From positions 1 through 24,000 of the forward strand of contig CAIOJS010000266.1 of NCBI GenBank assembly GCA_903858655.1: a stretch of DNA of 24,000 nt, given 5' to 3'. The DNA is from an uncultured bacterium (GTDB lineage: Bacteria > Bacteroidota > Bacteroidia > Bacteroidales > CAIWKO01). This document shows positions 126-24,000 of the stretch, piece by piece. Below the pieces are notes generated by a model that was given only the letters and a program-made list of their open reading frames with translations, did not search any database and was not told the DNA's origin. Positions within the stretch are counted from its first letter, which is position 1, and every line of letters starts with the position of its first letter. A program made the position numbers and the translations under genes.

Positions 126-415
126 TGTTATTTATAAGTATATTATTCCGAAGTTCTCGAATTGCTACAAATTATATTTTGCAACCATAAATCAGTTCTT
201 GTTACCATTTTTATATTAGATGATTGTATTCACCCCGAAAAGAATAGAGTTTTATGATTTGGGTGTGTAGAGTCTTTCAATGTTTCTTAGTTTACTAAGT
301 GCCTTTTTCTCTCCTTGCTCCTTGTCCATTTTTTCTAAAAGTCTAAAGTCTAATACCCTACCCACTTTTTAAATATATATTTTTTATTTATTGATTGTAA
401 TTAAAAAACATTTCG

Positions 416-423
416 TAGTTTTG
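416..423 (+). promoter_or_regulatory. Putative Bacteroidota-type -7 promoter box (TAGTTTTG, consensus TAnnTTTG) for block 1
   Basis: Exact match to TAnnTTTG 37 bp upstream of the ATG at 460. An ATTG lies about 18 bp further upstream as a possible -33 element. Motif match only. Confidence 0.4.
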
Positions 424-459
424 CGAAATATATTAATTACTCATTTAAAAATTATAATC

Positions 460-702
460 ATGAAAATAAAAGTATTAGGAACGGGTTGTTCGAGTTGCAA
501 AACATTAGAGAAATCAGTAGTCAATGCCTTAGCTGAATTGAAAATAAAGGCAGATGTAGAAAAGGTGGAAGATATTCAAAAGATTATGGCGTATGGCATT
601 ATGCGCACTCCCACATTGATTATTGATGAAAAGATTGCTATTAGCGGAAGAGTTCCCGCCATGAAGGAACTGAAAGAAATCATCGAAAAATACAATTACT
701 AA
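460..702 (+). CDS. Small thioredoxin-fold redox-active disulfide protein (TM0996/MTH895-like)
   Basis: ATG at 460 gives MKIKVLGTGCSSCK... (80 aa). It has an N-terminal CxxC (GCSSC) and MRTPTLIIDEK, typical of the small 'redox-active disulfide protein 2' family that accompanies ArsR and ArsP-type permeases. The track start at 391 is TTG and lies upstream of the -7 box. Confidence 0.85.
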   Translation: MKIKVLGTGCSSCKTLEKSVVNALAELKIKADVEKVEDIQKIMAYGIMRTPTLIIDEKIAISGRVPAMKELKEIIEKYNY

Positions 703-703
703 T

Positions 704-1003
704 ATGGCAAAGAAACCGAAATTCACAGCACAGCAAGAGCAAATTGCACGTATAGCCAAAGCATTGAGCCATCCGGCTCGGGTCTATATACTCGAAAAGC
801 TGAACGGGCTGAATGCGTGCTGCACGAGCGGCGAAATGATAGGCGATATCCCCATTGCACGTTCCACCTTGTCGCAACATTTGAAAGAGCTAAAATATTC
901 AGGATTAATACAGGGAGAAATTGAACCACCGCAAATTAAATATTGCATCAACCGTCCGAATTGGGAGATAGCCAAGCTGATGCTGCTCGAATTCATGAAA
1001 TAA
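704..1003 (+). CDS. arsR: ArsR/SmtB-family metalloregulator (paralog 1)
   Basis: Winged-HTH signature HPARVYILEKL...STLSQHLKELKYSGLI. A vicinal Cys pair (NACCTSGEM) sits at the alpha3 position used by As(III)-sensing ArsR. The gene starts 1 nt after the upstream stop. Confidence 0.9.
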   Translation: MAKKPKFTAQQEQIARIAKALSHPARVYILEKLNGLNACCTSGEMIGDIPIARSTLSQHLKELKYSGLIQGEIEPPQIKYCINRPNWEIAKLMLLEFMK

Positions 1004-1053
1004 GTATTAAGCAAATCATTTCGTAATAAGCAAAAATAACAAAACGCACAGAT

Positions 1054-1593
1054 ATGAAAACACAAAACAAATTACAATTCGCAAGTATAGTCTACTTGTT
1101 GATGGTCCTGTTGTTTGCAGGATGCGGTTCGAGTGGAAATAAAACGGAAGTTCCTAAAAAAACAGACAGCATACGCGCCACCGAAAATCCTAAAGAAGCT
1201 TCGGTGCCGATAAAAGATACGGCGAACAAAGCTGCGGTAGCCCCTGTTAGTAATGATGTTTCGAAAGTTATGATTTATAATTTTCACGTAACGAATCGCT
1301 GCGCATCGTGCATCGCCATTGAAGAAGCCACCACGAAAACGCTAAAGACCTATTTTGAAAATGAACTGAAGCAAGGGCGAGTCAAACGGCGCATAGTAAA
1401 TGTGGATGACGAAGCCAATCAGAAAATTGCAGAGAAATATCAGGCTTTCGGTTCGGGCATTTTTGTCACACGTATATATAAAGGTAAAGAAACGACCACC
1501 GACCTCACGGGCGATGGTTTCAAATTTGCTAAAAACAAAGAAGAACGATTTATAGAAATCCTTAAAAATAAGATTCTCGAATATTTAAAATAA
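1054..1593 (+). CDS. Lipoprotein with C-terminal thioredoxin-like CxxC domain
   Basis: Signal peptide with lipobox LLFAGC. A Pro/Lys/Ala-rich linker is followed by FHVTNRCASCIAIE (CxxC) and a thioredoxin-like remainder. It is a paralog of the next ORF. Confidence 0.75.
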   Translation: MKTQNKLQFASIVYLLMVLLFAGCGSSGNKTEVPKKTDSIRATENPKEASVPIKDTANKAAVAPVSNDVSKVMIYNFHVTNRCASCIAIEEATTKTLKTYFENELKQGRVKRRIVNVDDEANQKIAEKYQAFGSGIFVTRIYKGKETTTDLTGDGFKFAKNKEERFIEILKNKILEYLK

Positions 1594-1599
1594 ACCGCC

Positions 1600-2028
1600 A
1601 TGAAAAAAATTGCATGTCTTATTATTATCCTTTTTTCGTTGACTACCTTTGCTCAACAAAAAGGCGACACCATCATTGCCAACAATCCAAGTAACTTAAA
1701 ATTGAAAGTGTTATATTTTCATGTAACCAATCGTTGTGCGACCTGCAGAAGCATTGAAGCCAATGTTAGAAAAACCTTGAATGATTATTTTCTCAATAAA
1801 ATAGAACTTGGCACGATAGATTTTTATGTGGTCAATTGCGAGTTGCCCGAAAACAAGGAACTCGCTAAAAAATATGACGCTTATGGAGCCACTTTAGCCA
1901 TAACAAGTTATATGAATGGAAAAGAGGCACGAACGGAAGATTTAAGCAATTGGGCATTCCAAAAAGCCCACGATGCTGAGGTGTTTGTTGCCGAACTAAA
2001 AACCAAAATAGAGGATTACATTAAATAA
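1600..2028 (+). CDS. Secreted thioredoxin-like CxxC protein (paralog of 1054-1593)
   Basis: Signal peptide MKKIACLIIILFSLTTFAQQ. It shares the motif YFHVTNRCATCRSIE and ...AKKYDAYGATL... with the upstream lipoprotein. Confidence 0.75.
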   Translation: MKKIACLIIILFSLTTFAQQKGDTIIANNPSNLKLKVLYFHVTNRCATCRSIEANVRKTLNDYFLNKIELGTIDFYVVNCELPENKELAKKYDAYGATLAITSYMNGKEARTEDLSNWAFQKAHDAEVFVAELKTKIEDYIK

Positions 2029-2038
2029 AAACAACAAA

Positions 2039-2755
2039 ATGGAAGTATTACAGAATTGGTTAGACGCCACGAATGTTCCCTTTCTATCAGCATTTATATT
2101 GGGCATCATGACAGCGATAAGCCCCTGTCCACTTGCCACCAATATAACCGCTATCGGGTTTATCAGCAAAGATATTGAACATAAAAAGAAAATATTTTTC
2201 AATGGATTGTGGTACACTTTGGGCAGAGCCATAAGTTATACTACTCTCGGTGTGATATTATATTTTGGAGCAAGCAAGTTTCATGTTGCCAAGTTCTTTC
2301 AACTGAATGGAGAAAAATTTTTAGGACCATTACTCATCATTGTGGGCATATTAATGTTCGACTTTATCCGAATAAAATTTCCGGGTTTTGGCAAATTGAG
2401 CGAACGGATGCAGCATAGAAAACGGAAAAACAATTGGTGGAGTGCTCTGCTTTTAGGGATAGTGTTTGCGCTTGCGTTTTGCCCCTACAGTGGTGTGCTG
2501 TATTTCGGCATGTTGATACCCGTCACCATCAGTAGTCCTTCGGGATTGTTTCTGCCTTTTGTGTTTGCTTTTGCCACCGGGTTGCCCGTAATTATCGTGG
2601 CATATCTGCTTGCCTTCAGTCTTTCGAGTATAGGTGGATTTTATCACAAGGTGAAGATATTTGAGAAATGGTTTCGACGTATTGTGGCGGTTGCATTTAT
2701 TATTGTCGGATTTTATTATGTATATATCTTTTACTTTAAAGACATGATACAATGA
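2039..2755 (+). CDS. DsbD_2/CcdA-like transmembrane thiol-disulfide (electron transfer) protein
   Basis: About 6 hydrophobic helices, with Cys-Pro motifs in helices (AISPCPLATN and ALAFCPYSG) as in the cytochrome c biogenesis/DsbD transmembrane family. The stop overlaps the next start (ATGA at 2752-2755). Confidence 0.7.
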   Translation: MEVLQNWLDATNVPFLSAFILGIMTAISPCPLATNITAIGFISKDIEHKKKIFFNGLWYTLGRAISYTTLGVILYFGASKFHVAKFFQLNGEKFLGPLLIIVGILMFDFIRIKFPGFGKLSERMQHRKRKNNWWSALLLGIVFALAFCPYSGVLYFGMLIPVTISSPSGLFLPFVFAFATGLPVIIVAYLLAFSLSSIGGFYHKVKIFEKWFRRIVAVAFIIVGFYYVYIFYFKDMIQ

Positions 2756-3789
2756 GCCTAAACTTTTTCAAAAGTCCGAAAGGCAAAATAATACTGCCAC
2801 TTTTGTTGATTCCAATTTGGTATCTGATATATCATTTTTTGCAGCCTTTCACCGATTGGTTGATATTTTCTGCATTGGGCATGACCAAAGGAAATCATTT
2901 GGCAGAAGCACTTTGGTTTTTTATCTTTGAGTTTCCAAAGGTAATGCTGCTTTTGACATTGATAATTTTCTTTGTTGGCATCCTGCGCACTTTCTTCACT
3001 CCCGAACGAACGCGCAAAGCTTTGGAAGGAAAAAAGACTTTTACAGGAAATGTGATGGCTTCCTTGCTTGGCATTGTCACCCCTTTTTGCTCCTGCTCGG
3101 CTATTCCCTTGTTTTTAGGTTTTGTTGAAGCCGGTGTTCCTTTAGGTGTTACGTTCTCGTTTTTGATCGCAGCGCCCATGATCAACGAGGTGGCGGTGGT
3201 GCTTTTATATGGCATGTTTGGCTGGAAAGTAGCATTAATATATATAGGTACAGGTTTAGTAATTGCTATAACTGCGGGATGGGTCATTGGTAAATTGAAA
3301 CTCGAACGTTGGGTTGAACCTTGGGTGTATGAAACCAAAGTAGGGCACAATGCCTTGGGAGAAGAAAAAGTACATTTCAGCGATAGAATTAAATTTGGAT
3401 ACGATGCCGTGAAAGAAATTGTGGGCAAGGTATGGCTGTATGTAGCTTTGGGAATCGCGGTGGGTGCAGGGGCACATGGATATGTTCCTGCGGAATTCAT
3501 GGCTTCGTTGATGGGCAAAGATGTATGGTATGCCGTGCCGCTTTCCGTTTTGATTGGCATTCCTTTATATTCAAATGCCGCAGGCATAGTTCCTATCGTT
3601 TCAGTTTTAATCGAAAAAGGAGCCTCCCTCGGAACTTCGCTGGCTTTCATGATGTCGGTGATTGGTTTGTCCTTGCCCGAAATGGTGATTCTACGAAAAG
3701 TACTGAAACTGCCTTTAATATTCACATTTATTGCTGTTGTTGGTTGTGGTATTATGATAGTTGGATTTTTATTTAATTGGATATTTTAA
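2752..3789 (+). CDS. Permease of the ArsP / PF03773 type with conserved CSC motif
   Basis: Polytopic membrane protein with TPFCSCSAIPLF in an early helix. As I recall, this vicinal-Cys motif is characteristic of ArsP-type organoarsenical efflux permeases. The family usually pairs with the small redox-active disulfide protein and ArsR. Confidence 0.75.
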   Translation: MSLNFFKSPKGKIILPLLLIPIWYLIYHFLQPFTDWLIFSALGMTKGNHLAEALWFFIFEFPKVMLLLTLIIFFVGILRTFFTPERTRKALEGKKTFTGNVMASLLGIVTPFCSCSAIPLFLGFVEAGVPLGVTFSFLIAAPMINEVAVVLLYGMFGWKVALIYIGTGLVIAITAGWVIGKLKLERWVEPWVYETKVGHNALGEEKVHFSDRIKFGYDAVKEIVGKVWLYVALGIAVGAGAHGYVPAEFMASLMGKDVWYAVPLSVLIGIPLYSNAAGIVPIVSVLIEKGASLGTSLAFMMSVIGLSLPEMVILRKVLKLPLIFTFIAVVGCGIMIVGFLFNWIF

Positions 3790-3947
3790 GGAATCTGTCA
3801 AAAATGCACCCAAAATAAGCCTAAAATCCAAAGCCTAACAATCAAAATTCAAAATATTTTCAATAAGTAAACGAACTAGAATTTACAAGCTTGAATAAAT
3901 TTAATAAACTTTCAAACTTTTTTCATTGTCAATTCAAATTAATGTCG

Positions 3948-3955
3948 TATGTTTG
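3948..3955 (+). promoter_or_regulatory. Putative -7 promoter box (TATGTTTG) for block 2
   Basis: Exact TAnnTTTG match 21 bp upstream of the ATG at 3976. It overlaps the alternative ATG at 3949, which argues for 3976 as the true start. An imperfect palindrome, AATTTACAAGCTTGAATAAATT (3880-3901), lies about 50 bp upstream. Confidence 0.4.
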
Positions 3956-3975
3956 CGTCATTAAACATTAGAACC

Positions 3976-4311
3976 ATGACCAACAATAAATCCAAACGAT
4001 TCGAAGCTGATCAACAGAACATTGCGCTCTGTTGCAAGGTGCTTTCTCACCCTGCTAGAATTGCAATAATTCAGTTGCTTGCCGAAAAAAAGGAGATACG
4101 CACGGGTGATATATCCGATTTTTTGCCCATAAGCCGCACCACCGTCTCCCAACATCTCAAAGAACTCAAAGAAATGGACATCATAAAAGGCACTATTGAT
4201 GGGCTAAAAATACATTATTGTCTGAATATGGAAAAGCTCAACGAGATAAAAGAAATTTTCAACAGCTTTTTTGATAGTTCCATAAGTCCGTTTTGCTGCT
4301 CATGCGATTAA
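3976..4311 (+). CDS. arsR: ArsR/SmtB-family metalloregulator (paralog 2) with N-terminal CC and C-terminal CCSC
   Basis: HPARIAIIQLLAEKKEIRTGDISDFLPISRTTVSQHLKELKEMDIIKG. There is a vicinal Cys pair in ALCCKV and a C-terminal tail SPFCCSCD. The start could alternatively be 3949. Confidence 0.88.
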   Translation: MTNNKSKRFEADQQNIALCCKVLSHPARIAIIQLLAEKKEIRTGDISDFLPISRTTVSQHLKELKEMDIIKGTIDGLKIHYCLNMEKLNEIKEIFNSFFDSSISPFCCSCD

Positions 4312-4341
4312 AATAATTACTAACCTTATATATAAATAAAC

Positions 4342-5163
4342 ATGAAAAAAATTAATCTGATTATCGGTGCAATCATTATGATTTCGCTCTCGTTGAGCGC
4401 AATGGCACATAACTCTTCTCCCGTATCGGGGAAAGCAGTTACTCATAAAAGTAAAGCAAATGGTGTATCTTTCAATGCTGCCACCAATCCTGCAGCCGAT
4501 TTGGAAAAAGCTAAAAAAGAAGGCAAATCGGTCTTCTTGGTGATAACAGGAACCGGGGCAATTGGCGTAGAAAAAATGGTAACGATAGCTAAAGCTGCCA
4601 ATGCAAAAGTGCTTAAGTCTGTAGTTGTTCAAATGAACAAAGATGATGCTGCCAACAGTGCTTTGGTGAGCAAGTTGGGCGTTTCGGGTGTGCAAGTACC
4701 TCTTATCTTGGTGATTTCGCCCAAAGGTGTTGCCGTGGCAGGTTTCAATACTACACAAGCCACAACCGAACTGCTGGTTCAAGCTATTCCTTCGCCCAAG
4801 CAGGATGAGGTGTTGTTTGCTATTTCGCAAAAGAAACCAGTGTTTTTGGTGATTTCAAAAAAAGGTTTGACCGACAAGACTGCGCTCATAGCCAATTGCA
4901 ATACGGCAAGCACCAAAATGACAATTAAACCCGTAATAGTGGAATTTGATTTTGCCGACACCAAAGAAGCTGCTTTTCTGAAACAATTAGCAGTTGCAGA
5001 TGTTACTACAAAAACACGCATCATCGTAATCAATGCATCTGGGCAAATTGCCGACCGCTATGAGGGCACGGCAACCGAAGCTGCTTTGATGGCTTCGGCA
5101 ACCAAAGTGGTGTTGAGCAGTTGTTGTCCGGGTGGCAGCAGCAGCGGTTGTGGTAAAAAATAA
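4342..5163 (+). CDS. Secreted two-module protein (thioredoxin-like folds without CxxC) with Cys-rich C-terminal tail
   Basis: Signal peptide ...LSLSAMA-HN. Two internally similar modules (KSVFLVITG...VPLILVISPKG and KPVFLVISKKG...RIIVINASG). The tail is SSCCPGGSSSGCGKK. I recognise no family. Confidence 0.7.
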   Translation: MKKINLIIGAIIMISLSLSAMAHNSSPVSGKAVTHKSKANGVSFNAATNPAADLEKAKKEGKSVFLVITGTGAIGVEKMVTIAKAANAKVLKSVVVQMNKDDAANSALVSKLGVSGVQVPLILVISPKGVAVAGFNTTQATTELLVQAIPSPKQDEVLFAISQKKPVFLVISKKGLTDKTALIANCNTASTKMTIKPVIVEFDFADTKEAAFLKQLAVADVTTKTRIIVINASGQIADRYEGTATEAALMASATKVVLSSCCPGGSSSGCGKK

Positions 5164-5169
5164 TTTGGT

Positions 5170-6390
5170 ATGAATATCAGAAAACTTGTCTGGCTTGAGT
5201 TTAAACAGCACAAGTCACAATTGATTTCAGGTTTGTTAGCAATTACTTTAGGAATTGCCGTAATCGTTGGAATTAGGTCTATTTCAGTCGTGTCAGAGAA
5301 AGCAGTGGCTGTAAACCTTGATAATTTGGGTGCCAACATATTGGTGTTACCCCAAGCCTCCAATGTGGATAATTATTACGCTGCCGATATTGATGCTCCC
5401 ACCATGCCCGAAGAATATGTGGACAGAATTGTTTCGTCCAACTTAGAAGGTGTGGACAATTTGTCGCCCAAACTGACGCGAAGAATTAAGGTGGGCACAG
5501 AAAATGTTGTGCTCACAGGTATCATGCCGAAGAATGAAATCACCTCCAAACCTATGTGGCAACAGTCTGGTTTGTTGGGCAATGATTTGAAAGCAAGTTG
5601 CGCCCCCACCAATGCAGTGAACCAAAGCAATGGCTATGAAGATGAAAAATTGAAACGTAAGGTTATCGATTCTTTGGGAGCAGATGAATATTTGCTCGGT
5701 TCCACAATTGCACGAAAATTAAAATTGGCGGATGGCGGCAGTGTTGTTATTCTTGGCGAGAAATTCAAAGTGAGCAGAGTGCTCAACGAAACAGGCACCG
5801 TTGACGACGACCGCATATTCATACATCTGCGCAAAGCTCAAGAATTGTTGAAAATTCCCAATCAAGTGAGTGCCATCGAAATTATGGGGTGTTGCAATGC
5901 CATTTCCGACGGACTGTTGAGCAAATTGCGCAATGTTTTGCCCGATACACGAATCACCACTATTGGTCAAATCGTAGCAACGCAAATTCAAACCAACAAA
6001 ATGATGAATAAGGTGTCGCTCATTTTTCTTATCATTATCATATTTGTAGGTGGTATATCCATCGGTAATTTTATGTGGGCAAACATCAACGAGCGCCGCA
6101 AAGAGATTGGAATGTTGCGTATGATAGGATTTAATAAGGCAACGATTTATCGAATGATATTAGCCAAAGCCTTCGTATTGGGCATCATCGGAGGCTTAAT
6201 CGGTTATATCCTTGGCACGGCAGCAGGCGTTTGGTTGGGTCCCGAATTGGCGGGGCTTCCCGTGCAGCCGATTCCAAGCCTCATCTTGATTTCTTTATGT
6301 ATATCTATAGTTGTATCACTTTTAGGTTCCATTCTCCCGGCATATCTAGCGGGACGAATTGACCCTTTTAAAAACATGCAGGAGGTGTAA
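5170..6390 (+). CDS. ABC transporter permease, FtsX/MacB-type
   Basis: N-terminal TM helix (LISGLLAITLGIAVIVGI), a roughly 250-aa extracytoplasmic domain, then three C-terminal helices with an FtsX-like segment (RRKEIGMLRMIGFNKATIYRMIL...). Confidence 0.88.
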   Translation: MNIRKLVWLEFKQHKSQLISGLLAITLGIAVIVGIRSISVVSEKAVAVNLDNLGANILVLPQASNVDNYYAADIDAPTMPEEYVDRIVSSNLEGVDNLSPKLTRRIKVGTENVVLTGIMPKNEITSKPMWQQSGLLGNDLKASCAPTNAVNQSNGYEDEKLKRKVIDSLGADEYLLGSTIARKLKLADGGSVVILGEKFKVSRVLNETGTVDDDRIFIHLRKAQELLKIPNQVSAIEIMGCCNAISDGLLSKLRNVLPDTRITTIGQIVATQIQTNKMMNKVSLIFLIIIIFVGGISIGNFMWANINERRKEIGMLRMIGFNKATIYRMILAKAFVLGIIGGLIGYILGTAAGVWLGPELAGLPVQPIPSLILISLCISIVVSLLGSILPAYLAGRIDPFKNMQEV

Positions 6391-7056
6391 ATGATTCTAA
6401 AAACAAACAATCTCTGTAAACAATATCAACATAAAGATGTACCTGTTGATGCTTTGAATCATGTAAGTTTTGACGTGAACGAAGGCGATTTTGTTACCAT
6501 CACGGGGGCATCGGGTTCGGGCAAGACTACATTATTATTATCCCTTGCTGGATTGATTCAAGCCTCTTCGGGCGAAATACGCATCATGGACTTTGATGTG
6601 GTGCAAGCTTCCGACCGTAAACTCTCTGATTTCAGACGGAAGCATATCGGCTTTGTGATGCAAAGTTTTGCCTTGATTCCATATCTTACGGCTATCGAAA
6701 ATGTGATGCTACCTTTAGCGATATCAAAGGGTAAGAAAGAACAAAAATATCAAAAGGCATTGGCGTTGCTCAAATTGGTTGATTTGGAGAACAGGAAGAA
6801 TCATTTACCGAGTGAACTTTCTGCCGGACAACAGCAAAGGGTGGCGATTGCAAGAGCTTTGGTGAATTCACCTACCTTAATATTAGCAGATGAACCAACA
6901 GGGAACTTAGACCCGAGTCTTTCTACCGATATTCTGAATCTTCTGAAGAAAATAAATAAAGAAGAGAAAATTACGATACTTATGGTTACGCATAGCCCTT
7001 TGGCAGCGGAATATGGAAATCGAAAAATCAATCTTCATAATGGTTGCATAAATTAA
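6391..7056 (+). CDS. ABC transporter ATP-binding protein (MacB/LolD/FtsE-like)
   Basis: Walker A GASGSGKTT, signature LSAGQQQRVAIARAL, Walker B LILADEPTGNLD, H-loop MVTHS. The start abuts the permease stop. Confidence 0.93.
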   Translation: MILKTNNLCKQYQHKDVPVDALNHVSFDVNEGDFVTITGASGSGKTTLLLSLAGLIQASSGEIRIMDFDVVQASDRKLSDFRRKHIGFVMQSFALIPYLTAIENVMLPLAISKGKKEQKYQKALALLKLVDLENRKNHLPSELSAGQQQRVAIARALVNSPTLILADEPTGNLDPSLSTDILNLLKKINKEEKITILMVTHSPLAAEYGNRKINLHNGCIN

Positions 7057-7496
7057 AAGTGGAAACAAAACAGACTACAACATATTTCACCTCTCATGGG
7101 TTCTTTTCGGCAGGATTTTTTAATCTAACGCCCAAAGAAGCTTTTGAGGAAGCACAAAACAAAACTGCAATTGTGGATGTGCGAGAAGAAGATTTTACTG
7201 CTTTTAAATGTTTTGATGTGCCCACTGTTATCTATATACCCTATTCTCAAATGGTTTCGCGCTTTGAGGAACTTCCTCAAGATATACCTTTGATTATTGC
7301 CGATTCTGTTGGTCTGAGAAGTAAGGAAGCCATGATGTTTATAACTAGTAAAGGCTTTGAGAATATTGCAAATATGGCAGGTGGCATGGTTGAATGGGAG
7401 CGCGATGGTTTGCCTCTTGTCTTGGATGCTACCGAAAGGCTTGATGGGTCGTGTATGTGTCAATTGAAACCAAGAAATAAATTAAAAAATAAATAG
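7044..7496 (+). CDS. Rhodanese-homology domain protein with Asp in place of the catalytic Cys
   Basis: AIVDVREEDF...PLIIADSVGLRSKEAMMFITSKGFENIANMAGGMVEWERDGLPL aligns to the rhodanese fold. The active-site loop reads ADSVGLRS where CxxGxRS is expected. The C-terminal region has GSCMCQ. It overlaps the ATPase gene by 13 nt. Confidence 0.8.
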   Translation: MHKLKVETKQTTTYFTSHGFFSAGFFNLTPKEAFEEAQNKTAIVDVREEDFTAFKCFDVPTVIYIPYSQMVSRFEELPQDIPLIIADSVGLRSKEAMMFITSKGFENIANMAGGMVEWERDGLPLVLDATERLDGSCMCQLKPRNKLKNK

Positions 7497-7500
7497 AACA

Positions 7501-7917
7501 ATGAAAGTACTAATAATTTGTACAGGCAACACCTGTAGAAGTCAGATGGCAGAGGGATTTTTGAAATCTTTTGATGCGCAACTTGAAGTATATTCTGCAG
7601 GAACCAAAGCGGAGAAGCAAGTCAATCTTTATGCGGTGAAAGCCATGAGTGAGTTGGGCATTGACATCAGCCAACAACATCCGAAACATGTGGATGAGTT
7701 TCTGGGAGTTGATTTTGATTATGTGATTACTGTTTGCGACGGTGCCAAAGAAATCTGTCCGGTTTTCACAGGTAAAGTAAAGCAACGTATGCATATTGGC
7801 TTTGATGACCCTGCCGATGCAAAGGGAAGTGAGGAGGAAATCATGCCGATATATAGAAGGGTGCGGGATGAGATAAAAGAACGGTTTCATACCTTTTATA
7901 TGAATGACATTCAATAG
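7501..7917 (+). CDS. arsC: Arsenate reductase, LMW-PTP family (thioredoxin-coupled type)
   Basis: The P-loop VLIICTGNTCRSQMAEG (CX5R), and VITVCDGAKEICPVF supplying the two downstream Cys, match the S. aureus pI258 ArsC Cys10/Cys82/Cys89 pattern. Confidence 0.93.
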   Translation: MKVLIICTGNTCRSQMAEGFLKSFDAQLEVYSAGTKAEKQVNLYAVKAMSELGIDISQQHPKHVDEFLGVDFDYVITVCDGAKEICPVFTGKVKQRMHIGFDDPADAKGSEEEIMPIYRRVRDEIKERFHTFYMNDIQ

Positions 7918-7987
7918 CAAATGAATAAATAAAACAACGAAGATAATTACATAACAACCTATCAACTGAATACTAAATTTTAAAACA

Positions 7988-16070: not shown

Positions 16071-17513
16071 ATGGAAAACAAAAACGTCCTCGACCAACTA
16101 ACCCAAGGCGAATACAAATACGGTTTCTTCACCGATGTTGAAATGGATTCGGCTCCCAAGGGGCTCAATGAAGACATCATACGCTTTATCTCTGCTAAGA
16201 AAAACGAACCCGAATTCATGCTCGAATTCCGCCTCAAAGCCTACCGCAAATGGCTCACCATGAAGATGCCAGATTGGGCGCATCTCAACATTCCGCCCAT
16301 TGATTATCAAGAAATCATTTTCTATGCCGCGCCCAAAAACACCAAAAAACTCGGCAGCCTCGACGAAGTGGACCCCGACTTACTCAAAACATTCGAAAAA
16401 CTTGGAATCCCCCTCAACGAACAAAAACTCATGTCCGGCGTTGCCGTTGACGCCGTCATTGATAGCGTTTCCGTAAAAACCACCTATCAGAAGGTCTTAG
16501 AAGACAAAGGTATCATATTTTGCTCCATCAGCGAAGCCGTCCAAAACCATCCCGACCTAATTAAAAAGTACTTAGGCTCTGTGGTTCCTTTTGGCGACAA
16601 TTATTTCGCTGCCCTCAATTCCGCTGTCTTCACCGACGGCTCCTTCTGCTACATCCCCAAAGGAACACGTTGTCCCATCGAACTTTCCACCTATTTCCGC
16701 ATCAATGCTGCCAACACGGGACAATTCGAACGCACCTTGCTCATTGCCGACGAAGGCGCCTATGTCAGTTATATGGAAGGCTGCACAGCTCCACAGCGCG
16801 ATGAAAATCAACTGCATGCCGCTGTCGTCGAAATCATCGCCCTCGAAGATGCAGAAGTCAAATACTCCACCGTCCAAAATTGGTACCCGGGCGACAAAAA
16901 TGGAAAAGGTGGCATCTTCAATTTCGTCACCAAGAGGGGCATCTGCAAAGGCAACAGTTCAAAAATATCTTGGACACAGGTCGAAACAGGATCTGCAATA
17001 ACTTGGAAATACCCTAGTTGCATCCTCAAAGGCGACAACTCAGTCGGCGAATTCTATTCCGTGGCAGTCACCAACAACCATCAGCAAGCCGACACAGGCT
17101 CCAAAATGATACATCTCGGCAAAAACTCCAAATCAACCATTATTTCCAAGGGCATCTCTGCCGGAAAAAGCGACAACTCCTACCGCGGACTCGTCAAAGT
17201 TGCCAAAGGTGCCACCAATGCACGCAACTATTCCCAATGCGATTCCCTTCTGATGGGCAGCAAATGCGGCGCCCACACCTATCCCTACATCAAAGTGGAC
17301 AACAAAACCGCCATCGTCGAACACGAAGCCACCACATCCAAAATCTCCGACGACCAACTCTTCTACTGCAAACAACGCGGCATAGACCAGGAAAGCGCCA
17401 TCAACCTCATCGTCAACGGCTATGCCAAAGAAGTCCTCAACAAACTCCCCATGGAATTCGCCGTCGAAGCCCAAAAACTACTCTCCATCAGCCTCGAAGG
17501 AAGCGTCGGCTAA
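16071..17513 (+). CDS. sufB: Fe-S cluster assembly scaffold protein SufB
   Basis: [22 protein letters not shown]..., [47 protein letters not shown] and [21 protein letters not shown] are canonical SufB blocks. The track start at 15906 would overlap murA by 100 nt and adds non-homologous sequence. Confidence 0.95.
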
Positions 17514-17630
17514 AAGCTAAATCAACTCAAAAAATACAACTTGTGACGTTCTAATTCGCAATTTGTAGATTCGTAATTCGTAGTGGCTAACATATCTTAA
17601 TTCAAAGCTCCACTCATTGCCCTGTTAAAG

Positions 17631-18020: not shown

Positions 18021-18292
18021 AAAACTAGATTTAAAAATTAATACTTTTGAAAAGAACCGTAAAGATACACATAAATCTATTCCACAACATTTTTTTTTCA
18101 AATAAAAATTTCTTCCTCTTCAATTAGTCTATATCTTCAAATTGTCATCGGATACGCGAATATTGCCTATGGATACCCTGAAATAGCATTTGACAATAGA
18201 TCCTTCGTGTACTGCCTACCCTAACAAATAAATCATCATCATTGATTTATCCACATATAGCTCCAAAAATCATATAAACGGCACAATCTCGC

Positions 18293-19195: not shown

Positions 19196-19309
19196 ACAAG
19201 TGCGCAAAAGTAATGAAAAATTTCTTGTTTTTCAGAAGCGGATAACAGAAAAACATCCGATGCACATCCGCTATCTAATAAACAATTCGTATTTTTGCAA
19301 AAAAACTGC

Positions 19310-20410
19310 ATGCCGAACAAATCTAAACATAAGAAACTACCCCCATTATTTGTGATAAAAGCCACGATGGGCTTGCGTAATTTCTTGGTAAAGATTACAA
19401 AAGGAATGTTGCCCGCCAATTTTGTCTTGTTGGAAGAAGCTTCCGCCATTTGGAAGGCAAAATCCATAGCGGTAGCCGCCCAATTAAATATTTCGGACTA
19501 TTTGGAGGAAAAACCCCTGCCGATTTCCCAATTAGCAGCCCTCGCGGAATGCCATGAAGACGCCTTGTATCGTATGATGAGGGCTTTGGCAGGAGAAGGC
19601 ATCTACAAAGAACTTGCGGATAAACATTTTACAAACACTAAGCTCTCGAAAGCCATTCAAACGAAAGAAGATTCGGTGAAGTACTTCGTGATGCATCATG
19701 TGGGCGTGAACAATTGGGATTTGGTGGGCGATTTGTATAATTGTGTGAAGACCGGCGAGAATGCCATCACCCATAAATTCGGAATGGAGCCCTTCGAGTA
19801 TCTGGAAAAGCATCCCGAAAAAAATAATATCTTCAACAAAGCTATGACAGAGACCGCAGAATTGTCGGGAAGCATATTCCTGAATGCATATAACTTCGGC
19901 AAATATAAAAAAATCATAGATATTGGTGGCGGGCAGGGGCATTTGTTGGCGCAGATATTGAGAAAATACCCAGCCACAGAGGCAATTTTGTTCGACCAAG
20001 CACATGTGGTGAGCGATGCACATCTTCTTCTAAAAAAATATAAAGTTGATGATCGTTGTAGCATCGTTGAAGGAAGTTTTTTCTCATCCATACCACCAAA
20101 TGGCGATCTTTATATCTTAAAAAACATACTGCACGATTGGGATGACTCAACATCCGCAGAAATTCTTAAAAATATTCGCGCAGCCATGCTTCCTCATAGC
20201 AAATTACTGTTGATTGAAACTATTATCAAACCAAATAATAAACCTTCGTTTGGCAAGTTTGTTGACTTACAAATGCTTATTGGAACTTCAGGTGGGAAGG
20301 AAAGAACGCTTGAAGAATTTACGAAGCTTTTGACCGAGGCGGGATTCGCCTTCCGACGTGTTATTGAAAATGCCACGCCTTTCAGCTTTATAGAAGCTGT
20401 CACAAATTAA
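19310..20410 (+). CDS. Class I SAM-dependent O-methyltransferase (COMT/Methyltransf_2 type with dimerisation domain)
   Basis: SAM motif IIDIGGGQGHLLAQILRKYP, then GDLYILKNILHDWDD. The N-terminal wHTH-like dimerisation region is AAQLNISDYLEEKPLPISQLAAL. The start is uncertain: ATG at 19310 or 19367, and a TATTTTTG box at 19290-19297 favours the later one. Confidence 0.85.
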   Translation: MPNKSKHKKLPPLFVIKATMGLRNFLVKITKGMLPANFVLLEEASAIWKAKSIAVAAQLNISDYLEEKPLPISQLAALAECHEDALYRMMRALAGEGIYKELADKHFTNTKLSKAIQTKEDSVKYFVMHHVGVNNWDLVGDLYNCVKTGENAITHKFGMEPFEYLEKHPEKNNIFNKAMTETAELSGSIFLNAYNFGKYKKIIDIGGGQGHLLAQILRKYPATEAILFDQAHVVSDAHLLLKKYKVDDRCSIVEGSFFSSIPPNGDLYILKNILHDWDDSTSAEILKNIRAAMLPHSKLLLIETIIKPNNKPSFGKFVDLQMLIGTSGGKERTLEEFTKLLTEAGFAFRRVIENATPFSFIEAVTN

Positions 20411-20426
20411 TTTCTTACGCATAAAA

Positions 20427-22376
20427 ATGAAAATACTCCTGATAAGTCCCGGCTCGCCGGACGAAATTGATAATTTGATTATCCGCCAAATTCCTTATCT
20501 GTTTGCCAAAGCATTTACGGCGCCTCACGCAATCGCCACGGTAGCGGCATTGACACCGCTGGAACACGAGGTTACGCTCCATGATGAATACATGAAAGGT
20601 CCGGTGGACGATTTTTTGCCCGGAACCGACTTCGACATCATCGGGGTGAGCATCACTTCCAATCAACTGCAACGAAGTTTGAAGATAGCACAGTTGTGTA
20701 AGAAATTTTGTCCGAAATCATTATTAGTGGTGGGCGGCATCGGCGTCGAGACGCTCATCTATAAAAATAAGGAAGACATTGATGTGGTTTTTCATGGCGA
20801 AGCGGAAGACACCTGGGGCAGATTTTTGGAGGATTACAAGACGGGCACATATCAGCGGGTGTACAAAAACGTTTCGAAGCCCGACATGACCAAAACTCCG
20901 CCGCCCCGTTGGGATTTGATAGCCAAAGATATTTGCGCTTACAATTCCGTTTCGGTGCAAACCACGCGCGGATGTCCTTACGACTGTAGTTTTTGCGATG
21001 TTATCTATACTTACGGTCGAAAACCGCGCAGCAAATCAATCGAACAGGTGTTGGAAGAAATCCGTCGCTTGAATGATTTGAAAGTGATGATGGTTTTCAT
21101 TGCGGATGATAATTTTGCGGGAGATAGGAAGTATGTGAAAGATCTCTTGCGGCAGTTAATCGTGTTAAACAACTCATTTAAAGTGCCGATGGGCTTCTTT
21201 ACCCAATTAGATATCACGGTGGCAGAGGACGATGAACTGCTGGAGCTGTTAGCCGATGCCAACTTCTATAACTTGATGATAGGAATTGAATCGGTGAACG
21301 ATGATTCGCTGAAGGATATGAACAAAAAGCAAAATATCGGTGTGTCGGCAACGGCGGCTATTAAAAAAATTCAGTCGTATGGCATGGCGGTGTTGGTTCA
21401 CATGATTATTGGCGCAGATTCTGACGATGAAACGGTGTTCGACAAGACCGCAAATTTCGTGCAAGAGGCAAACATCATCTTCCATATATGTCATCCTTTG
21501 GCAGCGCCTCCGGGCACGAAGATGTGGTATGACTATAAACGGCAAGGACGCTTGGTGACCACCGAGCATGAGGAAGCGAGCGACAAAATGGATATCATCA
21601 CCAATATAATTCCCAAGAATTTGTCGCGCATCGAACTGTTTGAGGGGTTGGCTGACTATTGGGATAAGATTTTTGTGCATGATAAGTTTCTCGAACGTGC
21701 GTTGGGCTACGTAAAAGGCATTACCTACACTCCCAAGGCTAAGCCGCCCGGGTTTTCGTCCTTTTGGGCGATGCGGAAAATGATGGGAAGTATGTTTATG
21801 TATTTCATGTTTAAAATCCCTAAGAAAGATCGGCAGACTTTCTTTAAAATTTTGCGCGCTACCGATAAAAAAAAGCTGGGATTTTTGATGCCGAAGATTG
21901 TTTATATGTACACTTTTTTCATTATAGATTGCAAACGCTCTGCGTATGATGCAAAAGTGGCGCGCGAAATGGCACAGTGGGAGCGCGACAATCCCACGAA
22001 GGTGAAAGTGGATTCGTGCGACATCCCCGTTTCGGAGAAAATTCGCGAAAATGGCAAACATCTGGTGGCGGAAGCCTACAAATATATGCGCAGCCACACG
22101 CCCTTGAAAGAAATCATTTATAAAACTATCGTCGCCGCTATGCTCGACTTCAGCGACCGCTTTGGGGATACATTTGAAGGCATGGACGACTTCCATAGAG
22201 AACATATTCGCGACATTTGCGACCGAGCGATGCCCAACGTGATAGCCACAACCGCAGAAACCACAGCAGAATTTCCCGAGCAACAGCCTGCGGGTTTCAC
22301 ACGCGAGATAATGGATGCATTGGACAATGCGGTTCGTTACCGAAATATGTATAAGGAGGAAGTTTTAAGTGCCTAA
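20427..22376 (+). CDS. B12-binding-domain radical SAM protein with DUF4070-like C-terminal extension (649 aa)
   Basis: N-terminal Rossmann-like B12-binding region (KILLISPG...IIGVSITS...LLVVGGIG). Radical SAM cluster motif TTRGCPYDCSFCDV. The long helical C-terminal region is as in class B radical SAM/DUF4070 proteins. The gene starts 16 nt after the methyltransferase. Confidence 0.88.
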   Translation: MKILLISPGSPDEIDNLIIRQIPYLFAKAFTAPHAIATVAALTPLEHEVTLHDEYMKGPVDDFLPGTDFDIIGVSITSNQLQRSLKIAQLCKKFCPKSLLVVGGIGVETLIYKNKEDIDVVFHGEAEDTWGRFLEDYKTGTYQRVYKNVSKPDMTKTPPPRWDLIAKDICAYNSVSVQTTRGCPYDCSFCDVIYTYGRKPRSKSIEQVLEEIRRLNDLKVMMVFIADDNFAGDRKYVKDLLRQLIVLNNSFKVPMGFFTQLDITVAEDDELLELLADANFYNLMIGIESVNDDSLKDMNKKQNIGVSATAAIKKIQSYGMAVLVHMIIGADSDDETVFDKTANFVQEANIIFHICHPLAAPPGTKMWYDYKRQGRLVTTEHEEASDKMDIITNIIPKNLSRIELFEGLADYWDKIFVHDKFLERALGYVKGITYTPKAKPPGFSSFWAMRKMMGSMFMYFMFKIPKKDRQTFFKILRATDKKKLGFLMPKIVYMYTFFIIDCKRSAYDAKVAREMAQWERDNPTKVKVDSCDIPVSEKIRENGKHLVAEAYKYMRSHTPLKEIIYKTIVAAMLDFSDRFGDTFEGMDDFHREHIRDICDRAMPNVIATTAETTAEFPEQQPAGFTREIMDALDNAVRYRNMYKEEVLSA

Positions 22377-22462
22377 AGTTTGGAGTACTTAAAGTTTGCA
22401 GGACGCATACGGCTCCAAATCCAAAAATTTATTTTATTTGCATATCATAAAAGTATTGGCGG

Positions 22463-22498
22463 TTATCACTTTGGCATAATGCTGAAATTGAAGCGTTT
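22463..22498. repeat. Solitary degenerate copy of the left-edge 42-bp repeat family
   Basis: TTATCACTTTGGCATAATG...GAAGCGTTT matches the 1-125 unit TTATCACTTTGCATTAATGAAGATGCGTTT. The match is an exact 11-mer plus flanking similarity with small indels. Confidence 0.55.
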
Positions 22499-22588
22499 CG
22501 AATTCTACTTTCTACAGGATTAGAGCATTTCTAGTCCTTTTCTTTTTTAAAAAAGTGAATTTTCTATAAGTGACGATGGGTCGAAAAA

Positions 22589-22840
22589 CTAAAAAGTAAG
22601 GCAACCAACTACTGTTGGTGTATCCACTTTTTGAAAAGTAAAGGGACCGTCTACTGTTGGTGTGCCTACTTTTTGAAAAGTAAGGCAACCGACTACTATT
22701 GGTGTGCCTACTTTTTGAAAAGTAAGGCAACTTACTACTGTTGGTGTGCCTACTTTTTGAAAAGTAAGGGGACCGACTACTGTTGGTGTGCCTATTTTTT
22801 GAAAAGTAAGGGGACTAACTACTGTTGGTGTGGCGAAAAA
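22589..22840. repeat. Tandem array A: 6 x 42-bp repeats with internal 7+2+7 palindrome
   Basis: ACTGTTGGTG recurs at 22611, 22653, 22695 (one mismatch), 22737, 22779 and 22821, an exact 42-bp period. The unit core is CCTACTTTTTGAAAAGTAAGG (TACTTTT-TG-AAAAGTA). A roughly 9-bp variable patch lies after AAGTAAG. The array is bracketed in phase by CGAAAAACTAAA at 22582 and 22834 (252 bp apart). Confidence 0.9.
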
Positions 22841-22890
22841 CTAAATTTTAGTGGGTTGGTTTATGAGCAATGGAGTGGAAATCTAGAGAA

Positions 22891-23160
22891 CAGACGTACT
22901 CTGTTAACAGACCTTTAATAATTATAAAAAATTAGTCGTACTCTGTTGACAAACCTTGCATGATTTTAAAAAATCAGACGTACTCTGTTGACAAACCCTG
23001 CATGATTTTAAAAAATTAGACGTACTCTGTTGACAAACCCTGCATGATTTTAAAAAATCAGACGTACTCTGTTGACAAACCTTGCTTGATTTTAAAAAAT
23101 CAGACCTAATCTGTTGACAAACCTTGCTTGATTTTAAAAAATCAGACCTAATCTGTTTAA
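22891..23160. repeat. Tandem array B: about 6.5 x 42-bp repeats with internal 7+2+7 palindrome
   Basis: CTCTGTTGAC-type segments occur at 22899, 22941, 22983, 23025, 23067, 23109 and 23151 (42-bp period). The unit is CAGACGTACTCTGTTGACAAACCTTGCATGATTTTAAAAAAT, with the palindrome TGATTTT-AA-AAAATCA spanning the unit junction. The end copies are degenerate. Confidence 0.9.
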
Positions 23161-23336
23161 TGGTATTGAGGATAATTAATAAATTATGGAGAGTTAAAAG
23201 CTTCATTTATAATGAAATTCATTTGTATTGTTGACTCCATAACGAAATATCAATGGCGAATTATGAATCCTTTATCGCGTTAGCAACGCTTTAAAACAAA
23301 ATTCTAAAATCTTAAATCAAAAATCCAAAATTCCTT

Positions 23337-24000
23337 TTAACTCCACACTCCGGCGACTTCCTCTCCACACGAACCGCAGCGTCCATCCAAAAAATTATGG
23401 ATGCGCACGGCATAACCACGGCGTTCCACCAAAATTCCTTTACATTGGGGACAATAGGTGTTGGAAAAATTACCTTGGGGCACATTGCCCAGATACACAT
23501 GCTGTATGCCGGCAAAAATCGCTATCTCATACGCTTGTTGCATGGTCTCCAAAGGCGTGGGACCTACGTGCTGAAGCTGATGAGCAGGATAAAAACGGCT
23601 TAAATGCAGGGGTGTAGTCTGCATGTCTGCCTGATAAAGCCAATCGCACAGGCGCGTAATCATCTCAAGGTCGTCCGTGATGCCGGGGATGAGCAAATTG
23701 GTTATCTCGAGCCAAACATATTCGTTTCTCAAGGCTTTGATGGTGTTCAAAACGGGCTGCAATCTGCCTTCGCACAGCCTTTGATAGGTAGTGTTGCTGT
23801 GACATTTCAAATCTATGTTGGCGGCATCCAAAAAGGGCATCAACTCTTGCAGCGGTTCTTTATTGATGTAGCCATTGCTGATGAAAATATTCTTTAAACC
23901 TTGTTTGCGCGCCAATCGGGCGGTGGCTAACATAAATTCGAAGTAAGTGGTGGGTTCAGTATAGGTGTAGGCGATGCTTTGGCAGTTGGATTTCAGAGCG
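23337..24000 (-). CDS. AmmeMemoRadiSam-system radical SAM enzyme (C-terminal two-thirds; the 5' end lies beyond the window)
   Basis: The reading frame stays open to nt 24000 (...SIAYTYTEPTTYFEFMLATARLARKQGLKNIFISNGY...). LEITNLLIPGITDD, TPLHLSRFYPAHQL and the C-terminal zinc-ribbon-like CPQC...CGSCG are typical of this PflA-like radical SAM subfamily. The internal Met at 23933 is not the true start. Confidence 0.85.
   Translation of the reverse strand, partial: ALKSNCQSIAYTYTEPTTYFEFMLATARLARKQGLKNIFISNGYINKEPLQELMPFLDAANIDLKCHSNTTYQRLCEGRLQPVLNTIKALRNEYVWLEITNLLIPGITDDLEMITRLCDWLYQADMQTTPLHLSRFYPAHQLQHVGPTPLETMQQAYEIAIFAGIQHVYLGNVPQGNFSNTYCPQCKGILVERRGYAVRIHNFLDGRCGSCGEEVAGVWS

Follow-up and report, generated by a model that had tools for sequence, protein, structure and literature searches.

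Two adjacent tandem arrays, here called A and B, in a 24,000-nt stretch of DNA (the window) from an uncultured freshwater Bacteroidales bacterium are non-coding, lineage-specific minisatellites of the chromosome, and they lie in an expanded spacer between two convergent genes. They are head-to-tail, non-coding intergenic repeats with a unit in the range of 10-100 bp and are polymorphic in copy number or presence among close relatives, which are the properties by which minisatellites or VNTRs are recognised. Kept in helical phase, they may serve as a phased array for protein binding, or they may be functionless, and an earlier note on this DNA, which had described the arrays, was right to leave their role open. 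Of the functional readings we rank first, as a possible one, the nucleoid-protein scaffold or phased binding array. Put in full, it says that A and B are helically phased minisatellites at the level of DNA, with one AT-rich dyad in every four turns, cooperative binding and change by whole units; we hold the chances for and against it to be evenly balanced, and its functional part is what we infer. Taken alone, A and B are one more pair of bacterial minisatellites, and ruling out a centromere and a peptide gene at this place prevents mis-annotation. Their 42-bp period is a general property of the repeats of this clade and nothing special to the locus, and if the quantisation in steps of 21 bp behind it holds genome-wide, that is the part worth following.

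Structure and setting of the two arrays

The earlier note had claimed two tandem arrays with an exact 42-bp period, and TRF recovered both at period 42 with 0% indels in either: array A at 22592-22832, with 5.7 copies and 88% matches, and array B at 22891-23157, with 6.4 copies, 92% matches and a degenerate first unit. The unit counts given before stand at about 6 for A and 6.4 for B, with the correction that A gains diverged edge units, which bound the array when it is printed in register. Both edge units keep a diverged CGAAAAACTAAA, at 22582 and 22834, and because the separation of these edge copies is exactly 252 bp, that is 6x42 bp, we put the extent of array A at about 22581-22845, or some 6.3 units of 42 bp; TRF, the register, inverted repeats and the palindrome statistics all bear on this delimitation. 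The distance between the arrays, previously put at 50 bp, is accordingly 58 bp in TRF coordinates, or about 45 bp (22846-22890) with the A edge unit counted. None of these three features is assigned to a strand.

The interior units of A carry a 7+2+7 AT-rich palindrome, TACTTTT-TG-AAAAGTA, which is exact in three window units and has one mismatch in two more, and those of B carry another of the same form, TGATTTT-AA-AAAATCA, exact in four window units and with one mismatch in one more. A dyad scan that allowed at most two mismatches found five sites in A and five in B, against a chance expectation across the whole window of 0.36 (A) and 0.77 (B), and a perfect 7-bp arm occurred among shuffled units in 0.8% (A) and 2.6% (B) of cases. 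The dyads of A and B thus exceed chance, with the symmetry kept in each array as had been stated, and this hints at constraint. In an inverted-repeat search, the core of the A unit proved to be the centre of a longer, imperfect 19+19 palindrome. The patch of A that had been called hypervariable is real, although its variation is modest: a few alleles are combined as (GCA|GGG)AC(C|T)(AA|GA|GT|TA)C, with at most six polymorphic positions. This patch is the outer right arm of the 19+19 palindrome, and its variation is uncompensated on the left arm. What is more, the segment TACT(CT)GTTG is common to A and B, where it lies 11 nt and 4 nt past the palindrome, which bears out the reported offset difference of 7 bp.

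Cyclic autocorrelation gave no lag-7, lag-14 or lag-21 signal of a 7-bp or 21-bp ancestry of A or B. In a wedge-model calculation the units had a net intrinsic bend of 14-18 degrees per 42 bp, which is less than shuffled units show on average. Resemblances to LytTR sites, DnaA boxes and ArsR operators were checked by eye and are too weak for any claim.

The window is ordinary chromosome. The gene-free gap of 960 bp described earlier was found at 22377-23336, between the 3' ends of two convergent genes that both point toward the arrays. On the left is a B12-binding/DUF4070 radical SAM gene (20427-22376, + strand), which is widely conserved in Bacteroidales, and on the right is the 3' part of an AmmeMemoRadiSam-system radical SAM gene (23337-24000, - strand), which runs off the window. 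Directly past the stop codon of this right-flank gene lies a 7/21-bp repeat of AAAATCN-like heptamers (23291-23331, no strand). A third 42-bp array, unrelated to A and B, stands at 2-132 (no strand) upstream of an ars cluster and has at least 3.1 units, being cut by the window start. The ars cluster comprises genes for a thioredoxin, two ArsR regulators, ArsF-like proteins, an ArsP permease, an LMW phosphatase and an Acr3/SBF transporter; the other genes of the window encode an ABC transporter, a DUF1573 protein, a MauE/DoxX protein, MurA, SufB, an EamA transporter and an O-methyltransferase. Scans of the main ORFs of the window with Pfam and NCBIfam found no ParA, ParB, Rep or Cas domain among them, in agreement with the earlier statement that no parAB-like or replication gene is present. 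The companion statement that there is no regulator gene did not hold, since two ArsR-family HTH genes lie at 704-1003 and 3949-4311, in the ars cluster about 18 kb from the arrays.

Occurrence and divergence among relatives

A genome scan with the radical-SAM protein of the left flank led to 19 Bacteroidales MAG loci. At two of these, L001 and L002, the protein is 98% identical to that of the window and the DNA about 92% identical, and the divergence from the window at fourfold-degenerate sites is 0.20-0.24 for L001 and 0.13 for L002; both are sister lineages of the window and not the same strain. L001 has array A, with 5.7 units, and array B, inside which its contig ends. L002 has B with 5 units and no A: at the position of A it holds a single GCGAAAAACT, and from there on the sequence is unalignable to the window. 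Three further assemblies of the L002 lineage, retrieved by its exact radical-SAM protein, add a B with 4 units (L069), a B with an N-gap inside (L068) and a contig that ends in B (L070). The search of related genomes for the same units that the earlier note had proposed thus finds B common to three sister lineages, with 4 (L069), 5 (L002) and 6.4 (window) units, and A missing in one of them; these differences in copy number come from short-read assemblies, and the copy numbers are untrustworthy because short-read contigs end or gap inside the arrays.

The arrays themselves are real, because the same units and the same unit-specific variants recur in six independent assemblies (the window, L001, L002, L068, L069 and L070) that differ in sample and assembler. 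An assembly artefact, which the earlier note had named as something that would undo its proposal and to which contigs ending or scaffolds gapping inside the arrays might point, is ruled out by this recurrence, and we leave it practically no probability.

In relatives at 73-81% protein identity, a convergent gene follows only 60-84 bp past the radical-SAM gene and there are no arrays; this gene encodes a purB-like lyase in L073-L075 according to Pfam and is without annotation in L071. The conservation in close relatives on which the earlier proposal had been made to depend therefore splits, B being kept in the sister lineages while A is absent from L002 and both are absent at 73-81% identity. 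Since the distant relatives have a spacer of 60-84 bp, the spacer of about 900 bp with its arrays is a recent, genus-specific expansion. A recent and local origin of the arrays is what the comparison of spacers, the single GCGAAAAACT in L002 and the 6x42 bp between the edges of A together indicate. In such an origin, tandem duplication of local 42-bp segments would have produced the arrays, which would then gain or lose units whole, whether by slipped-strand mispairing or by unequal recombination. Unit-wise change is seen between the four B units of L069 and the five of L002, and also in a separate 21-bp array, which has four more units in L001 than in the window.

The right flank of B (23158-23268, no strand) travels with B and is homologous in L002, yet the gene downstream of it differs there and is purB-like. 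Synteny between the window and L002 breaks at the arrays or next to them.

Along the locus, divergence between the window and L001 falls from 29% mismatches, with gaps in addition, past the stop codon and 20-24% at fourfold-degenerate sites to 9% in array A, 3.4% in the strongly conserved A-B spacer (2 differences in the 58 bp of 22833-22890) and 1.9% in array B, so that B and the spacer are about ninefold less diverged than the fourfold-degenerate sites. Moreover, the units of B, the degenerate first one included, pair one-to-one between the window and L001, and for that reason B is stable and not churning. The low divergence of B and the spacer resembles purifying selection and may be a hint of it; recent recombinational transfer, however, would be an equally good explanation of the low divergence of B, because the locus is mosaic. 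The window equals L002 over 22377-22444, the 68 bp after the stop codon, and homology ends there; B and its right flank are less conserved in this comparison, the right flank with 33% mismatches.

Readings as peptide gene, RNA, centromere or mobile element

That the arrays might be translated had been raised as an alternative to the binding-site proposal. Because 42 bp make 14 codons, open frames through the arrays are expected by chance. There is one through A on the + strand, with YCWCAYFLKSKxTx repeats, which lacks an ATG or GTG start and has only a TTG inside the repeat unit, and one through B on the - strand, with SDFLKSCRVCQQST repeats and an ATG start in the window. Since a radical SAM gene adjoins the arrays, the two frames could be taken as translated into repeat peptides with several cores, such as RiPP precursors on which the neighbouring B12 radical SAM enzyme and the O-methyltransferase would act. 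In array B of L002, however, TAA stops stand in 3/5 units of the B frame and all six frames are closed. The A frame is open in L001 too, but its readable differences from the window are nonsynonymous substitutions (within the array C>R, Y>H, A>G, Y>N and W>C; within the tail Q>R and G>E). A search of 5.8 billion protein clusters gave no homologue of either repeat peptide, neither of which is itself listed there as a called protein, and Pfam gave sub-threshold noise only. As for the adjacent radical SAM protein, it has 260 matches at E<1e-100, mostly at loci without such arrays, and a gene so widely conserved, single-copy in hundreds of Bacteroidales, is no dedicated maturase. We therefore rejected the RiPP precursor as very improbable, and translation is refuted to the extent that sequence allows.

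Another reading is that the arrays are transcribed to a non-coding RNA with hairpin modules, which would work as a REP-like 3' stabiliser or as a sponge for an RNA-binding protein. REP and BIME elements of enterobacteria sit in 3'-extragenic positions between convergent genes, and the imperfect palindromic units of A and B are clustered in just such a place. In addition, the RNA of A forms hairpins (z against shuffles of -3.5 for the + strand and -2.9 for the - strand), and B moves with its right flank as one module. REPs, on the other hand, are one sequence family with hundreds of dispersed copies that are mobilised by RAYT transposases, whereas the units of A and B are locus-specific, strictly tandem and fixed at a 42-bp period. 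The RNA of B has no significant structure (z = -1.1 and +0.4 against shuffles), the changes in the arms of A are uncompensated, and Rfam 15 gave no match at the gathering score, with two chance-level ones only at E<1. Array A is also downstream of an intrinsic-terminator-like hairpin with a T-run (22516-22548, + strand; conserved in L001), which would end the radical-SAM transcript upstream of it. TAnnTTTG is the promoter consensus of Bacteroidetes, and this -7 motif occurs zero times in 22300-23400. Every unit of B does show a sigma-70-like TTGACA-N17-AAAAAT arrangement, to which we give no weight because the primary sigma factors of Bacteroidota use a different consensus. Finally, a DNA-helix period of 21 bp has no obvious meaning for an RNA, and we consider the RNA reading quite unlikely.

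The closest likeness named in the earlier note was to sopC. The F-plasmid sopC consists of twelve 43-bp direct repeats, each with a pair of 7-bp inverted repeats bound by SopB, and A and B are likewise direct repeats arranged head to tail, each unit about four helical turns long and with a single pair of 7-bp inverted repeats. The geometry is thus real and fits a partition centromere or an iteron set of a replicon. The centromere role does not stand with it: A and B are chromosomal, with no adjacent parA/parB or sopAB operon, no plasmid or low-copy extrachromosomal location and no sequence similarity to sopC, their dyad is AT-rich, and two different arrays stand side by side. Against a centromere or iteron set there are also the lack of any Rep gene in the window, the absence of A from a sister lineage and of both arrays from near relatives, and the period they share with at least 11 unrelated arrays of equal period class in 136 kb. 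Because so many unrelated arrays of the clade have it, the 42-bp period is no evidence for a dedicated partner such as SopB. Whether the replicon is a chromosome or a plasmid had been posed as a check, and the answer is a chromosomal housekeeping context: MurA, SufB, the ars cluster and the radical-SAM gene are syntenic across many Bacteroidales MAG contigs, up to megabase length. Extending the window leftward by exact-protein look-ups brought only contigs below 1 kb, and one look-up came back empty. Blastn against PLSDB and INPHARED and two viral pattern scans returned no match to the arrays. We give very little credence to a partition centromere or iteron set, and an iteron-like site, which had been listed among the possibilities, is contradicted by the same findings. 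Arrays in helical register for cooperative binding are found in plasmid iterons and in the type II/III centromeres of R1 parC (11 bp), pSK41 (20 bp) and the omega protein (7-bp heptads); A and B are in helical register too, but have no replicon, Rep, ParR or omega gene nearby, and their units are twice as long. A phase-variable element, likewise suggested before, is unsupported, given that a convergent gene ends on either side of the arrays. A CRISPR array was rejected as well, the units being contiguous with a patch of at most six polymorphic positions and the window having no cas domains. The likeness of A and B to sopC or to iterons is geometric only, and they are not a centromere, an origin, a CRISPR array or a peptide gene.

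As for dispersed elements, a blast with the units found them only at the orthologous locus in 312 kb of Bacteroidales sequence. When metagenomes were scanned for pairs of B dyads separated by 21-51 bp, no B-family array was found; the chance AT-rich repeats that came back, with scattered periods, served as a negative control. BrickBuilt of P. gingivalis is a 23-nt minisatellite borne on a MITE (PMC4596501). It is a dispersed multi-copy element with a leader, a tail and inverted-repeat ends, whereas A and B were seen at one locus only in the 312 kb and have no MITE-like terminal inverted repeats around 22380-23340. Like mycobacterial MIRUs and BrickBuilt, A and B are non-coding, intergenic and lineage-restricted, differ in copy number or presence, and break short-read metagenome assemblies; unlike BrickBuilt, they have a period of 42 bp instead of 23 nt and belong to a set quantised at 21n across unrelated arrays.

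Tandem-repeat periods across the clade

We counted as a strong array any TRF cluster with a score of at least 100 and a period of at least 12. Across the 136 kb of the window and its closest relatives, 14/14 strong tandem repeats have a period of 21, 42, 63 or 84 bp; they make up 11 independent arrays after orthologues are collapsed, with unrelated unit sequences. Periods of 21n account for 0/1 strong arrays in distant Bacteroidales (176 kb) and for 5/54 in unrelated control contigs (270 kb), where the periods are scattered from 12 to 188. The 21n arrays occur at a density of about one per 10 kb, are all intergenic with mixed orientations of the neighbouring genes, and in several of them none of the six frames is open. 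A rule of multiples of 3 alone, or of 7 alone, would not give 21n.

For the phased binding array, the proposed mechanism is that the AT-rich dyads, one in each 42-bp unit, would all point to the same side of the helix, and such a lattice would suit a dimeric DNA-binding or nucleoid-associated protein that binds cooperatively where two transcription units converge. Its role at this convergence zone might be that of a roadblock, an insulator or a structural element. Several observations count against the model: array A is dispensable, being absent in L002; there is no above-chance intrinsic bend; the outer-arm changes of A are uncompensated; and the 21n statistic is drawn from 136 kb with 11 independent arrays. 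Dyad symmetry among the 21n arrays is present only in A, B and one other, and since most of the others have no dyad, a dimer-site model fails to explain the period rule generally.

The principal rival holds that A and B are functionless, neutral or selfish minisatellites, slippage products in a dispensable spacer, and that the 21-bp rule is a lineage bias in duplication or retention. The gain and loss of arrays among close relatives and their position at synteny breakpoints agree with it. So do the unit sequences, which are unrelated between loci, even at one intergenic position across species: downstream of EamA, L001 (7652) and L011 (5743) have different units, and downstream of the radical SAM gene the units of A and B in the window differ from those of L003 (13010). 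The arrays share no leader or flank motif, and there is neither an associated gene nor a promoter motif. But slippage alone predicts no preferred period, yet all 14 strong arrays are at 21n; and the ninefold lower divergence of B and the spacer, the dyads above chance and the one-to-one orthology of B units, which makes B stable, are not what it leads one to expect either. We regard an absence of function as less likely than not.

A third and more general proposal, which we put forward only tentatively and with some leaning against it, is that intergenic tandem repeats in this clade are made or kept almost exclusively in steps of 21 bp, two turns of B-DNA, which would imply a ruler of some kind. 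If true, A and B would be two readouts of the 21-bp ruler. Such a ruler could lie in a protein of the chromatin or nucleoid that favours phased lattices, or in a replication or repair bias peculiar to the lineage. A two-turn quantisation independent of sequence would then give a natural and rare way to ask how bacterial satellites are shaped by DNA geometry, nucleoid proteins or repair, and would be a parallel to the nucleosome-length satellites of eukaryotes. The literature searched describes no 21-bp rule.

The STRR of cyanobacteria are intergenic heptamer repeats. Intergenic heptamers have been reported, without explanation, as the most abundant intergenic tandem repeat (PMC6344855), and TAACTGA heptamer repeats are described in Beggiatoaceae, Cyanobacteria and Bacteroidetes (PMC4679880); the 21-bp rule might bear on this long-noted abundance. 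Unlike heptamer repeats, A and B have no 7-bp or 21-bp substructure, and the strong arrays have periods of 21n and not of any 7n. The clade studied here does resemble the known cases in being rich in 7-bp repeats by stop codons, and in the association with contig ends and rearranged intergenic regions. In spacers that carry 21n arrays, the shorter 7-bp repeats are located at or just past the stop codons.

Arrays with periods in multiples of 21 bp

Strong intergenic tandem repeats were located in the sister-lineage loci L001 (7652-7764) and L002 (6751-7053, 14227-14288 and 20916-21161), and in three other close relatives, L003 (13010-13161), L004 (655-869 and 18772-19019) and L011 (5743-6033). 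In the closest relatives all 14 strong intergenic arrays have a period of 21, 42, 63 or 84 bp (hereafter 21n arrays), against 5 of 54 in unrelated control contigs, and their units are unrelated. Such arrays occur about once every 10 kb in these relatives, compared with about once every 176 kb in Bacteroidales loci that are more distant.

The window itself begins within a third 42-bp tandem array (2-132), which is truncated at the window edge and comprises at least 3.1 units with 88% matches. This array lies some 260 bp upstream of the point where the ars cluster starts with thioredoxin/ArsR. The repeated unit shows no relation to those of arrays A and B, the two 42-bp arrays between the convergent radical-SAM genes; a perfect palindrome, TTGATTAATCAA, is present in the first unit, but no significant dyad was found in the consensus unit. 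Downstream of the EamA gene, comparison of window 18038-18190 with L001 7529-7764 revealed a 21-bp array, ATAGCATTCGGACACCCCAAC, of which L001 has about 5.4 units, roughly four more than the window; L011 carries at the same position a different 21-bp unit repeated 13.9 times.

Spacer homology and synteny breakpoints

The 68 bp following the radical-SAM stop are 100% identical between the window (22377-22444) and L002 (11951-12018), beyond which homology stops abruptly, whereas L001 diverges by about 30% over the same stretch. This pattern indicates mosaic recombination in the spacer. On a larger scale, L002 carries the segment corresponding to window 12192-17521 in inverted orientation and at another location, and has purB in place of the AmmeMemoRadiSam gene of the window. 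When L002 6751-7053, 12018-12837, 14227-14288 and 20916-21161 were compared with the window, a 21n array was found at each synteny breakpoint or within about 1.2 kb of it.

Sigma-70-like sites and heptamer repeats

All interior units of array B (22946-23142) carry TTGACA-N17-AAAAAT on the plus strand and TCAACA-N17-TAAAAT on the minus strand, giving 13 sigma-70-like sites against 3.3 expected; however, the primary sigma factors of Bacteroidota have a different consensus, and the relevance of these sites is thus doubtful. In convergent spacers, 7-bp repeats occur at, or immediately 3' of, stop codons, namely in the window (17552-17583 and 23291-23331), L004 (11926-12056) and the further Bacteroidales loci L005 (1826-1860), L015 (11940-12017), L074 (4780-4806) and L075 (2324-2348). 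The two opposed blocks of L015 (GGAGTKY... and ...RMACTCC) form a single long hairpin, which may be a terminator made of heptamers.

Neighbouring genes

The O-methyltransferase and B12/DUF4070 radical SAM pair (window 19295-22376; L073 721-4179; L074 196-4721) is conserved across Bacteroidales, with a second B12 radical SAM gene (474 aa) between the two in some relatives. A large ars-type island (391-11473) encodes thioredoxin, two ArsR regulators, two ArsF-family nitroreductase-subunit-like genes, two DsbD-like membrane proteins, an ArsP permease, a MacB-type ABC pair, an Acr3/SBF transporter, a rhodanese, an LMW phosphatase (ArsC-like), and a CdhD-like protein with ferredoxin.
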